From the IMG/VR virus record IMGVR_UViG_3300032218_003260: DNA of 64,000 bases; one strand, 5' to 3'. Source of the stretch: a virus. Taxonomy: Duplodnaviria; Caudoviricetes. The translations under genes and the position numbers were made by a program. Shown piece by piece: positions 48,321 to 57,177 of this stretch; positions within the stretch are counted from its first letter, which is position 1, and the number at the start of each line of letters is the position of its first letter. The notes under the pieces were generated by a model. The model was not told where the DNA came from. It did no database searches and worked only from the letters and a program-made list of their open reading frames with translations.

Positions 48321-48334
48321 CGCTGATAGCTAAA
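48321..48334 (+). repeat. CGCTGATAGCTAAA element, copy 1
   Basis: Identical copy at 53267-53280; perfect reverse complement at 48905-48918. Confidence 0.9.
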
Positions 48335-48385
48335 AAAACGCTTGGCAGCCGGGAGTGGTTAGCTCCCGGACTGCGTCTGCGTTTT
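48332..48385 (-). terminator. Intrinsic terminator
   Basis: GCAG(T)CCGGGAG/CTCCCGGCTGC stem followed by a T7 run on the minus strand. Confidence 0.75.
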
Positions 48386-48802
48386 TCAATTGACCGACTC
48401 CGCGATAGCCGCGTTGTAATCATAGCTGGTCATGTAACCACGGTTAATAACCACCGTTAATTGCGCAAAACAATTGTCGATTTCTTTGTTGCACGCGTCG
48501 ATTTCCGGCCATTTGGCGAGGGCTCGGATGAGGGCGTCGCGGGAATCTTGCTGTTGCCGAATCTTGGCATTGATTTCGGTCATCGCGGCTTCCCACGCAG
48601 CTTTGTCGACGTACTTGTGTTTGTTAAGCGCCGGCGACCACACGAACCGCTCACTCAACGGGGCGGTGATGTCCGTGGTGGTTTTCCTTGGCAGGAAGTG
48701 CCGACAGGCAATCCACAGCACTGTCATGACTACCATGCCAGCAATGAGCGACTGGCCCATCGCGTACATCAGCCCGGCAACAAACATCAGAATCGTATCC
48801 AT
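48386..48802 (-). CDS. Membrane-anchored hypothetical protein (cassette gene)
   Basis: Start MDTILMF; N-terminal TM segment; has its own promoter-like motif and terminator. Confidence 0.65.
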   Translation of the reverse strand: MDTILMFVAGLMYAMGQSLIAGMVVMTVLWIACRHFLPRKTTTDITAPLSERFVWSPALNKHKYVDKAAWEAAMTEINAKIRQQQDSRDALIRALAKWPEIDACNKEIDNCFAQLTVVINRGYMTSYDYNAAIAESVN

Positions 48803-48878
48803 CGTGGTTTTCCCTTGTGGAAAGAATGCGGCTGGAGACACAACACGTGGCTTACCAGCAAAGAGCTAGGCTCCTCAC

Positions 48879-48910
48879 TAGATATACCCGGTTTTGGCCG
48901 TTTATTTAGC
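48879..48910 (-). promoter_or_regulatory. Bipartite promoter-like motif CTAAATA-N17-ATAT, copy 1
   Basis: Minus strand GCTAAATAAACGGCCAAAACCGGGTATATCTA; five copies with exactly 17-nt spacing. Confidence 0.7.
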
Positions 48911-48912
48911 TA

Positions 48913-51900
48913 TCAGCGGTTAGCGGTATACGCGACGCCCGCACCACCCGCTGCAAGCCCGCCGACCCCGGCTGCGCCATAGCCCACGCGCTTAGCCATT
49001 GGGACCATGGGCGATGCCACGGTCATGCCGTAGCGAATCGCGGGGCCGTACACCATCTTGCTCAGCGTCGGATTCACGCCGGATTCCTGCGGCTTGTACA
49101 CCATGCTGTGATCGGCTGCGTTCATACCTTGTAGCCGCCGGGGCGATAACTGAAACTCAACAGGTGTGCCTTTGAGCGTCCCTTTGATGTTATGCCCATG
49201 ATAGCCGGGGCGCATTAACATCTTGGACCCAGTGATTTGCACACCAGCGTCTGTCAGTTGTTTTGTTAACGAATCAACAGCAGGTTGACCGTAGCCTTGG
49301 CTGGACGAAAGCCGAAAGCCAAGTAAGTCGTTGGTGACTTGATCTGTTCCGTGGCCTGCGATGCTTCCGGGTGTCTTCACGCGGCCGGCATATGTCTGGA
49401 AACCCTGCGGCTTGAACGACGACAAGAACTCGTTGCCAGCCTGCAGGGCTTGATTGCGCTCGGCGTGCAGGATGCCTTCGGGGACAGAATTACCCAGCGT
49501 CGTCATGGGCCCGCGGAACGACTGGCGCGCAGCTGTCATGCCTTTCGACAGCCCTTTGAAACCCAGCCTGCGTCCAAGCCCCATAGCGCCAGAAACTAAC
49601 CCAGCCGACTTTTCTTTCGCGTCGGGCCAGCCGGGTTTGAGCTGGTAGTCATACACAGGCTCGCCGGCCAACAGCTGCTGCTTGGCCAATGTGGGCACAG
49701 CGCCAGCGATCGAACCGTCTGGTTGGGGCTGTAACCGATAGCGTTCTTTCAGCCACTGTTTATGATATTCAGGCGTTTCTTTGGCCAGCCGATCAAACTG
49801 CTGCGTGGCGATAAACGTGTTGATATCATCCGGCGTCATCGTAATCGGGTGCAGCTTTTCGCGCTGTTTTTTCAGGGGCGTGATGCTGTAATGCACACCC
49901 TCTTGTAGCGGCGTTTTATTTTCGCGCTCTGCTAGGTGTTTGCGCAGCCGGTCAAGCACGGCCTGTTGTTTTTTTTTATTACCGGGTAACACAGCGCGGG
50001 CTTCACCAGTGCGGGCGTTGTTATATGCAATCCCGGGATGGTCTAACTCGTCCAAAATAGTATGCAAAGACTTGCGCAGGTTTACGCCTTGTACGTCGCC
50101 GTCAAAGCGATACACGCCGGCTTTTTTATCTGTCACTTGTCTGGCCGCGGCGTCAGCTTTAAACCCGCCCAGCGTCTTCTTGCCGTAGTGCGCGAGCATG
50201 GGCGCAGAAGACGCCAGCATGTATGTGGGCAGGCCAATAAACGCCGATCGGCCGCCCTTGAGCTTCATCTGGCGCATGAGCTTGGCGCCCCGACGAGACG
50301 CATCAAACTCAGACGCTAACATCGGCACTGCGCCGACTGTACCCGCAATCGCCGAGTTCCGAGAGTTAGTCTCGTTGTTTGAAAGCAGCGCGCCGGCCGT
50401 ACCTAATCCCAGCGCCGGCCGACCGATTTGATTACCGCGCATGAGCCATTTGCCGCCCATGTGGTGCCCGATCTCGTGCGCTAACACGCCGGGGTTACTC
50501 ATGCGCGGACTATGGCCAATCGTGGGTTTTGATATCCCCATACCCGGATTTGCCGGTGTATAAAACGCGGGGGTGTTGCGCACACTATCAGCCGCTGAAC
50601 GGCGCATTCTGTACTTGATGTTATTCATGAGATCGCCAAGCCAGTTGCCCGTTGTTTTAGGTGCTATCTTTGGGTCAATCTTGCTGGCAACGTTCAAACT
50701 ATCTGTCACATCTACGCCCTGCCCCTTTGCGTAGTCACTGAGTTGTTGCCACGCTTGCGATGTTTCAAGCGTCGGCACAGCGTTCATTTCTGGGCGCGCA
50801 ACACGGTTCATGTACGCAGTTAATGGCACGCCAATCGCAGCATTTGTCGCCGGCATGCCACCGAGGTACCAGCCCATCGAGTGCCCTAAACCGGGCTTAG
50901 CGGGTTCTTTTTTTTTTGCTTCGATTGCGCTTTTTTTACCAAAACGCGCAGCAAAATCTGCGGGCGATACCGGGCGAATCGAAGGCGGCGCGGCTGTTGT
51001 TGCTGGGGCGGCCGGCGGTGTGGCCGGCGCTGCAGTGGGCGATACAGGGCGCTGCATAACTGGCGAGGGAGCCGGACGAGCTGCCGGGGCTGGGCTTGGT
51101 CGCGGAACAGCAGTTGGAGCCGGCTGCGCAACTGGCGTGGGTCTAGCTTGCTGCGAAACAGGAGCGGGAACCGGACGCGCTGCCGGCCGAGGTGCTGACG
51201 TTACCGCTTGCCCCGCTCCGGTGGCGCGTTGCGTGTCTATTCGCTGGCGCATCAGCTGATAATTTTGCAATTTTTGCCATTCTGGTACGCCGTCGTTCAC
51301 GTTTACAACGTTTTTCATGTAACTACTGAGGTCGGCGCTCGTGGGCCGTGCAGGCATTTTGAACGGTGTGCGCGCAGCTGCCGCAATTGGTTTTTTCGCA
51401 ACTCCGCTGACCGCTTTACCAGCCATGCGACCAATCGAGCTGAGTAAACCGGCCATCTTCTCCCCGCCTACAGAATTGGCTGTCCCAAACGCGGCGTTCC
51501 CTGTGATATCACCCGTCGAAGACAACGCGCCGTATGAATTAATAGGATTGGCGTTGGGAGACGAACCGCCGCCAACAGGGGGTAGTTGGCCAGACGGAGC
51601 AGGCGAGCCCGTGTTTGCTGGCTGGGCGGCGGGAGCCTGTGGTTGGCCTTGTGGCGCCTGTGCCTGCATACCCATAGGGAGCGGCGTACCCATCGCCGGC
51701 ATGGCATATCGCTTAATTCCGGCGTTTGCAGGCATCCGGGCAGCCTCTCGGGCCTCCATTTCAGCCCTTTCATTCTCCATCGCCTGCATAATGGGCTGCG
51801 ACAAAACAGCAGAAAGCTTCGCCATTAACGTGTTTACACCATAATTTGGCTTTGTTTCCGAGTTACATCTTTCGCCCTTGGTTTTAACGACCTTGGGTGG

Positions 51901-56633: not shown

Positions 56634-56673
56634 AAAAAAAAGCGCGGTCAGGGTCCGAAGACCACTGCCGCGC
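56634..56673 (-). terminator. Intrinsic terminator
   Basis: GCGCGG/CCGCGC stem plus a T8 run. Confidence 0.65.
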
Positions 56674-56678
56674 AAGAT

Positions 56679-56909
56679 TCAGGTGACAGCCTCAAAGTCG
56701 GCGTCGATCACCGTGTAGCCGTCGAAGTCGTCGTTCAGGATCGCTGCTTCGGCCGGGATGCACTCGCAGACGCCCAGTTCAAGGCCGCAGTGCAGGCAGT
56801 GCTCGATGTCCGTGTCAGGCGGCGCAGTGGCCACAGCAAACACGAACAGCATGTCCCGGTAGTCGTCCACATTGACCTTCACCGCCGGGTTGTTGCGCAG
56901 ACCAGCCAT
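56679..56909 (-). CDS. Small Cys/His-containing acidic protein (cassette gene)
   Basis: AAGGAGG RBS then MAGLRNN; HCLHC...CEC. Confidence 0.6.
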   Translation of the reverse strand: MAGLRNNPAVKVNVDDYRDMLFVFAVATAPPDTDIEHCLHCGLELGVCECIPAEAAILNDDFDGYTVIDADFEAVT

Positions 56910-57091
56910 AATCTCGTCCTCCTTGAAGAGAAATAAAACAACCGCCGTCTCGTGGCGGTACACGCTAATGGTCTCTCGCCATTAGACGGCCCCACCTATC
57001 ACCGGGCAGGGGTACGGCGAGGAAGTGCTATAGCTTCATGCGTAAGGCCAGTGCAATACACACTGCCGCGGCAAGAGATATAGGTCCTCAA

Positions 57092-57122
57092 TAGATATGC
57101 CGTGTTTTTGGCAGATATTTAG
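57092..57122 (-). promoter_or_regulatory. Bipartite promoter-like motif, copy 5
   Basis: CTAAATATCTGCCAAAAACACGGCATATCTA; spacer contains TGCC/GGCA arms. Confidence 0.7.
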
Positions 57123-57138
57123 CTAGGTTCTGATAGCT

Positions 57139-57177
57139 AAAAAAAAGCCGGCAGGGAAGCGCATCCCTACCGGCTTT
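57139..57177 (-). terminator. Intrinsic terminator
   Basis: AAAGCCGG/CCGGCTTT stem plus a T8 run, followed by AGCTATCA. Confidence 0.75.

Follow-up and report, generated by a model that had tools for sequence, protein, structure and literature searches.

The closest described counterparts of the element treated here are the promoter-early stem-loop (PeSL) cassettes of T4-type phages (Arbiol et al., 2010, PMC2839356; Comeau et al., 2014, PMC4122927). These phages hold about 50 PeSLs per genome, with promoters of the host sigma-70 early consensus; the A/T-rich part that precedes the -35 box holds the stop codon of the gene upstream, the two boxes often enclose a stem-loop, and excised mini-circles closed at a chimeric motif have been described. 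As a mechanism it was proposed that the junctions act as portable homology by which units are moved (PMC2839356, PMC4122927). Here we report a similar arrangement in a stretch of 64,000 nucleotides from the IMG/VR virus record IMGVR_UViG_3300032218_003260 (Duplodnaviria; Caudoviricetes), hereafter termed the window, in which a short word, TGATAGCTAAA, recurs at the borders of small transcription units. The window is part of a ~200-kb uncultured phage with its own multisubunit RNA polymerase, and its open reading frames (ORFs) lie nearly all on the minus strand. Our preferred explanation, to which we give a probability of about 60%, is that the word belongs to composite terminator/promoter junctions of the PeSL kind, which would double as short homology in recombination.

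In total, five exact copies of TGATAGCTAAA were found in the window against 0.01 expected from shuffles (48324+, 48905-48915 on the minus strand, 53270+, 55974+ and 57131+), all confined to 48.3-57.2 kb. The 14-mer CGCTGATAGCTAAA is exact at 48321+ and 53267+ and inverted at 48905-48918, variants with one or two mismatches lie at 54386-54396 on the minus strand (TGATAACTAAA) and at 56626-56636 (AAATAGCTAAA), and a degenerate copy is seen near 53506-53514. Exact and mismatch searches thus reproduced the copies and variants listed in a preliminary description of this DNA. Read on the minus strand, which is the coding strand, the word is two transcription signals, the tail of a terminator and the upstream flank of a promoter. 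This role in transcription comes first: the word follows every strong terminator, also beyond the cassette region.

For comparison, relatives of ~200 kb were taken from IMG/VR; all are metagenome assemblies, and their ORFs were called by simple in-house means. One of them, G001 (199,845 bp), was compared over its whole sequence and shows 80-88% nucleotide identity to the window. Besides G001, ten further IMG/VR loci span the cassette region; gene maps were drawn for 11 genomes, and genome-wide tests were run on five 97-100% complete relatives instead of the window's own genome. Scanning IMG/VR with 16-mers returned mostly chance matches plus G001, and a metagenome scan with the leader of promoter P1 (Table 1) returned contigs of G001 and G005 only. 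Identity of the polymerase is 91-98% across the five near-complete genomes as against 31-95% between genomes for the 671-amino-acid (aa) gene flanking the region, which is therefore hypervariable in an otherwise close-knit clade. The 671-aa gene itself looks allele-like in its hypervariability and has no family assignment.

On the coding strand, the terminators consist of a GC-rich hairpin, a run of seven or eight T and then the tail AGCTATCAGCGC, which in its longer form reads AGCTATCA(GCGC). At five strong sites a stable GC-rich hairpin with a T-run follows a gene, as in intrinsic terminators, with folding free energies (dG) of -23.6 to -40.4 kcal/mol and z-scores (z) of -4.7 to -7.4, and a further hairpin behind the 65-aa ORF is weak (-5.1 kcal/mol, z -0.3). 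In agreement with the preliminary description, the word borders on the T-run at all five strong hairpins and at the weak one. The hairpins are unrelated in sequence, their common part being the T-run and the tail only. The reverse complement of the T-run plus AGCTATCAGC is GCTGATAGCT plus an A-run, which is the upstream flank of the promoters, and the copies of the word look inverted because tail and flank have the palindromic core TTTAGCTAAA in common.

The tail is not restricted to the cassettes. In an unbiased terminator scan (hairpin dG <= -14 followed by a T6 run), 5/5 window sites with dG <= -23 carry it, and in G001 a tailed terminator on the same strand lies at position 8133, outside the cassette region. 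T5AGCTAT occurs 4-5 times in each of the five near-complete relatives, always on the same strand and with one conserved copy ~40 kb from the region, and in the intergenic DNA of G001 TTTAGCTA(T) ranks among the 8-mers with the highest enrichment, level with T-run words. In more distant family members (45-75% protein identity) the tail recurs behind unrelated hairpins at non-orthologous places, and the whole genome of one of these, G006, contains the promoter and tail words seen here. Terminators of this family thus bear the tail in general, and it does not mark only the cassettes. Variants of the tail follow weaker terminators elsewhere (T7 CGCTATTAGCGG, T7 GCTATCC and T8 GCTATCAG at window 26339 on the minus strand, G001 46263 and G001 147952, respectively), which suggests that the tail rule would hold genome-wide. 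Our guess is that the tail either tunes the efficiency of termination from downstream or is bound by a phage protein.

The promoters have a layout of CTAAATA, a 17-bp spacer and YATATCTAGTGA, preceded by GCTGATAN where the promoter directly follows a gene. More generally, the family form is CTAAATAW with or without GCTGATAN before it, a 17-bp spacer that ends in CGG and often holds a small hairpin (as in P1, P2, P3 and P5), and YATATYTAKTGA; the consensus of 59 distinct instances from 12 genomes is gctg.tagCTAAATAaa.gccaAAa.ccgGgcATATctAgTGA. Two contexts can be told apart. After a terminator, the T-run and AGCTATCAGCGC lead over 3-5 nt to (G)CTAAATA, so that terminator and promoter form one composite joint in intergenic DNA, as in T4/P3 and T6/P5. 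After a gene, the sequence reads GCTGATAN-CTAAATAA and includes that gene's stop codon, and on the opposite strand such gene-adjacent promoters, P2 among them, read as a small hairpin, TTTATTT and the tail. As earlier claimed, the word overlaps the upstream boxes of P1 and P2, and partly that of P5. CTAAATA-N16-18-YATAT occurs 5-6 times in each of the five near-complete relatives, always on the coding strand, with 0 occurrences of the reversed pattern as a control; all copies lie in one 6-9 kb region, bar one copy in G002 ~8 kb further on. In geometry the promoter resembles the sigma-70 family, as a 17-bp spacer separates boxes at the -35 and -10 positions, but with CTAAAT and YATATY in these positions it does not match the sigma-70 consensus. 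Sigma-32, sigma-28, Bacteroidota and Caulobacter consensus promoters gave weak alignments and were dropped.

A second conserved promoter-like box is present between T1 and the 671-aa gene (48241-48249, minus strand, CAGTAGAAT, then GGGCGAG), with TAGAAT in a -10-like position. More distant relatives have a similar TAGAAT box directly after a terminator tail (AGCTATCAGCGC-tccAGTAGAAT; ..agCCATAATGAATGGGCGAG). This box may be a different class of promoter.

The word also supplies stop codons, as the preliminary description had pointed out: CGC TGA TAG closes the 1270-aa and the thioredoxin ORFs, and GGT TGA TAA closes the 406-aa ORF. Where a promoter directly follows a gene, GCTGATAGCTAAATAA offers stop codons in all three frames. 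Among 22 gene-adjacent promoters, the long ORF is closed by TGA in 16 and by AAA-TAA in 3, and homologues of the 1270-aa gene stop in different frames of GCTGATAGCTAAATAA, with TGA in six genomes and AAA-TAA in three. The TGA of the copy at 48321 ends no real ORF, and coding constraint therefore does not account for the word at this place.

Conservation of this kind brings to mind an operator, in which the asymmetric 12-15-bp word (half-site TGATAG/CTATCA) would bind a phage protein at promoters and behind terminators; this could be a specificity subunit of the polymerase or a temporal regulator that, for example, shuts off or insulates a gene set. Such a protein would add a trans factor to our preferred explanation and is compatible with it. 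The word is indeed kept in either orientation after unrelated hairpins in family members with 45-75% protein identity, and class-B promoters (P1 and P2 in the window) keep GC before TGA though the encoded residue switches between Gly and Arg. However, no candidate for such a DNA-binding protein was found, and the cassette ORFs belong to no family. An influence of downstream DNA on termination would also account for a conserved sequence behind the T-run, and we regard an operator as unlikely. An RNA partner acting in trans was likewise sought: no stretch complementary to the word was found in a nearby 351-nt RNA or in the rest of the window, and no Rfam family matches within 48-57 kb. A transfer RNA (tRNA) origin of the word was considered, and the resemblance was judged to be due to chance. 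In two unrelated IMG/VR contigs (L131 8093-8168 and L136 12276-12351) a tRNA with a CUA anticodon, of the amber-suppressor type and called 'Pyl' by ARAGORN, starts with the first 16 nt of the word (GCGCTGATAGCTAAAT).

The 11 genome maps have one common architecture with gene turnover at the junctions. Strain comparison, proposed earlier as a check for gene gain or loss at motif boundaries, revealed replacement, insertion, loss and relocation of units, and these differences fall at the borders of promoter-gene-terminator units, which the word had been said to mark. The slot between the P1 leader and T1 holds a 151-aa ORFan in the window, another family in G001 and G002, and other ORFs elsewhere; homology between the window and G001 breaks at 48387, the inner foot of T1, and returns at 48829, where the conserved leader ends. 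G001 carries an extra unit of promoter, 131-aa ORF and terminator between T3 and the thioredoxin gene, bounded by direct repeats TTTAG(C/A)TATCAGCGC (TTTAGCTATCAGCGC), and at the same site G002 has a single copy of the repeat joined directly to thioredoxin. In turn, the additional element in G002 is a 185-aa ORF that lies between the 406-aa gene and P2 and is bounded by direct GGYTGATAWCTAAAT repeats that are the bare 15-bp word (GGTTGATATCTAAAT and GGCTGATAACTAAAT).

Transfer and relocation were also seen. A run of 267 bp in the window (53266-53532) is 100% identical to a 194-kb contig, beside which one flank cannot be aligned and the other is 74% identical, with neighbouring proteins at 31-66%. 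One end of this identity coincides with the outer base of the word and the other lies in the 3' arm of T3, so that T3 of the window is a chimera with respect to G001 and G002. A block of the inverted thioredoxin gene and the homologue of the 1270-aa gene follows the terminator of the 219-aa gene in the window, G001 and G002, and that of the 74-aa gene in eight other genomes; in each case this two-gene block has the tail of a junction on one side and the promoter box of that junction on the other, and the word is inverted at the far end of the block. Finally, a promoter variant, CTAAATATCTATCAAAA..., stands after three different terminators and before unrelated ORFs in three genomes.

The composite junctions cut a hypervariable region into predicted transcription units of one or two genes, mostly ORFans. 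Because they are repeated, conserved and outside coding sequence, we propose that the junctions offer short portable homology of 15 to about 45 bp, through which crossovers among co-infecting relatives, or from one junction to another in the same genome, would move whole self-sufficient units. A mechanism of the PeSL type would need no dedicated site-specific recombinase.

That said, several points weigh against this explanation. Between the window and G001 there are 20 replaced or indel segments of at least 100 bp; three touch the word, but 17 lie elsewhere without the motif, at plain gene borders, so gene turnover in this phage does not need the motif. Spacers and leaders stay specific to each orthologous promoter across genomes, and ectopic exchange between junctions is therefore not frequent. 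Intergenic spaces are small and almost filled by terminator and promoter signals; any viable crossover between genes would thus fall in these signals, and coincidence of breakpoints is weak evidence for a causal role. The homology common to some crossovers is only ~15 bp, and crossing-over within the motif is deduced from the end states. As to the signals, terminators and promoters are predicted ones, a sigma-70 scan of the window lists 0/5 of the promoter sites, and no Sigma70_r2 domain was found in the relatives.

The same 17 segments speak for a rival explanation in which tail and promoter box are regulatory signals only, with no role in recombination, and breakpoints fall there only because selection keeps those recombinants that break between genes. 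Also in favor of this, the tail is present at terminators outside the variable region, and an upstream stretch of small ORFs that has no junctions also varies in gene content. Against it, the 185-aa insert of G002 duplicates just the 15-bp word and no whole promoter or terminator, the 267-bp perfect patch stops on the last base of the word, and the two-gene block takes the same position within two different junctions. We regard a purely regulatory role as possible but not likely, and continue to prefer PeSL-like junctions that double as short homology.

A dedicated site-specific system was also considered, in which the 14-15-bp word would be the crossover site of a recombinase or nuclease, integron-like or Hin/Gin-like. 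In its favor, the unit 48321-48918 and the block 48905-53280 are each enclosed by perfect inverted copies of 14 bp (the preliminary description was right that the divergent block 48913-53272 has inverted copies at both outer ends), insertions are flanked by direct copies of the word, and the word carries stop codons like the cores adjacent to attC. However, neither tyrosine recombinase (PF00589, 0/5) nor serine recombinase (PF00239, 0/5) was matched in the five near-complete relatives, though the same searches matched the control genomes (14/14 for PF00589). A RecA-fold ORF present in 5/5 relatives is borderline (~26-27 bits), may be a helicase and was not used as evidence. No gene family occurs in both orientations among the 11 genomes, thioredoxin being inverted in 10/10 genomes that have it. 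The hairpins are not attC-like, as they have no paired core sites and the word stands only on the 3' side of the T-run; five units have their own promoter, unlike the promoterless cassettes of integrons; and the word is present at fixed conserved terminators far from any variable gene. The integron and invertase analogies are thus not supported, and from the earlier suggestion of cassette insertion, inversion or shuffling, insertion and shuffling are borne out by the comparative maps and inversion, with none in 11 genomes, is not. Overall, we hold a dedicated site-specific system to be extremely improbable. Somewhat less remote, yet still improbable, is that the word is the site of a dedicated phage factor, namely a specificity or termination subunit of the polymerase or an unrecognised nuclease or recombinase, that couples termination, re-initiation and cassette exchange. 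If true, this would be a genuinely new kind of phage gene-cassette platform and not passive homology.

Table 1. Coordinates of features in the cassette region and of the other genes mentioned in the text.
Feature	Coordinates	Strand	Basis or remark
Terminator T1: hairpin, T7, tail AGCTATCAGCGC; motif copy 48321-48334	48321..48386	-	dG -27.6, z -5.3
151-aa ORFan cassette gene, predicted membrane protein	48386..48841	-	unrelated ORFs replace it in every relative
Promoter P1, class B: GCTGATAG-CTAAATAA-N-CGG-GTATATCTAGTGAG	48876..48918	-	upstream part is inverted motif copy; holds stop codon of 1270-aa gene; leader conserved to about 48829
1270-aa modular protein gene, ends inside motif	48913..52725	-	ORF comparison
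Thioredoxin-fold gene, ends CGC TGA TAG inside motif	52943..53272	+	sole inverted gene of region
Transferred patch: T3 3' arm and T-run, 65-aa ORF, weak hairpin, tail motif	53266..53532	-	267 bp, 100% identity
65-aa ORF in transferred patch	53302-53499	-	patch tail motif at 53266-53280
Terminator T3: hairpin, T8, degenerate tail AACTAAAGG	53506..53572	-	dG -40.4, z -7.4
219-aa Ala/Gly-rich ORF, no family	53605..54264	-	family search
Promoter P2, class B: GTTGATAA-CTAAATAA-hairpin spacer-GTATATCTAGTGAC	54357..54399	-	holds stop codon of 406-aa gene
406-aa Ntn-hydrolase-like gene	54394..55614	-	Pfam AAT / NAAA-beta
Terminator T4 (hairpin, T7, AGCTATCA) joined to P3 (GCTAAATAA-N-TCATATTTACTGG)	55931..56026	-	motif copy 55974-55984
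74-aa ORFan	56027..56251	-	family search
Promoter P4	56313..56347	-	promoter pattern
Terminator T5: hairpin, T8, AGCTATTT (variant motif copy)	56626..56678	-	hairpin scan
94-aa ORFan	56679..56963	-	family search
Terminator T6 (hairpin, T8, AGCTATCA) joined to P5 (TAGCTAAATAT-N-GCATATCTATTGAG)	57089..57182	-	motif copy 57131-57141
626-aa polymerase continuation ORF	11991-13871	-	family match
Fused beta/beta'-like RNA polymerase ORF, 1467 aa	14851-19254	-	family match
SNF2-type helicase and trypsin-like protease	42735-45290, 45303-46151		accessory genes around region
671-aa gene	46190-48205	-	no family
Transfer-messenger RNA (tmRNA) gene	60780-61126	-	Rfam RF00023, 121.8 bits
tRNA genes Leu-TAG, Glu-TTC, Val-TAC, Asn-GTT	61633-61714, 62273-62347, 63664-63737, 27975-28048	-	

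Most cassette ORFs are without family (Table 1). The 1270-aa gene is different in every relative in its 3' modules and in length (346-1270 aa); the N-terminus of its protein, MPFKSEKQ..., is widespread in IMG/VR phages, with 490 confirmed stretches that mostly cover the first ~27-35 residues only. The thioredoxin has a hydrophobic N-terminus. The tmRNA and three of the tRNA genes lie just upstream of the cassette region in the direction of transcription.

The two polymerase ORFs match the beta/beta' families of phage multisubunit RNA polymerases, and a search with the 1467-aa ORF showed a single copy of it in each relative. By this polymerase the nearest GenBank phage is Salmonella phage Arash at 32% identity; taxonomic hints are limited to the fused ORF and this weak relation. 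The promoter pattern is absent from Arash, and a literature search on this phage gave nothing relevant. In Arash the homologue adjoins the portal gene, which hints, by analogy, at a virion-associated polymerase. The cassette region gave no megablast match to GenBank phages. The joint of tail and promoter has seven matches in bacterial and archaeal genomes, in unrelated taxa and at about chance level, which offer neither a chromosomal counterpart nor a clue to the host.

Among known systems, the terminators recall the early intrinsic terminators of phages T3 and T7, whose efficiency is reportedly set by downstream sequence, as Telesnitsky and Chamberlin are said to have found in 1989. Both have a hairpin and U-tract followed by sequence beyond the release point, which matters for termination there and may do so here, but in the present case one fixed word is common to all strong terminators of a phage family. 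Phage morons, as in lambdoid phages, are self-contained inserts of promoter, gene and terminator. The unit 48321-48918, a promoter, one accessory gene and a terminator between larger genes, is similar to them; however, the units described here stand in a row, use one family of promoters and terminators and are exchanged at common junctions. With integrons they have in common single-gene units with a structured 3' element, a short conserved core at the borders and variable content at a fixed locus. Unlike integrons, there is no IntI or other tyrosine recombinase, the hairpins are without paired core sites, the units have promoters and terminators of their own, and the word is also found at ordinary terminators outside the array.

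The analogy with PeSLs drawn in the preliminary description fits well, given the composite motif, the ORFans and unit changes bounded by the motifs. Both systems have composite terminator/promoter motifs between the genes of a hyperplastic region. In both, the gene upstream has its stop codon in the A/T-rich part ahead of the -35 box, the boxes often enclose a stem-loop, and ORFans lie between the motifs. Indels, replacements and relocations among related phages are bounded by the motifs and no dedicated recombinase is involved; the promoter sites here, with the single G002 outlier, are likewise concentrated in one 6-9 kb hyperplastic region beside ORFans. The differences are that PeSLs are hosted by T4-type phages and the present phage has a multisubunit RNA polymerase with Arash (32%) as its nearest cultured match, that the promoter is not of the sigma-70 type (CTAAAT at the -35 position), that there are 5-6 promoters per genome against about 50 PeSLs, and that the terminators end in a fixed 12-nt tail whose reverse complement is the upstream flank of the promoter.

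The result is solid and would not surprise a phage genomicist. It raises one point on the tail, namely that the same 12-nt word follows every strong terminator of the family and recurs, reversed, in the flank of its promoters. The three-frame stops in the word show how a junction can take any incoming ORF, and the map resolves into transcription units an accessory region with a secreted thioredoxin, an Ntn-hydrolase-like protein, a modular 1270-aa protein and ORFans. Taken together, the locus is best read as a PeSL variant from another lineage, with a non-sigma-70 promoter, few junctions and a fixed tail that mirrors the promoter flank, and it extends modular shuffling of the PeSL type from T4-like phages to a ~200-kb phage clade with its own RNA polymerase.

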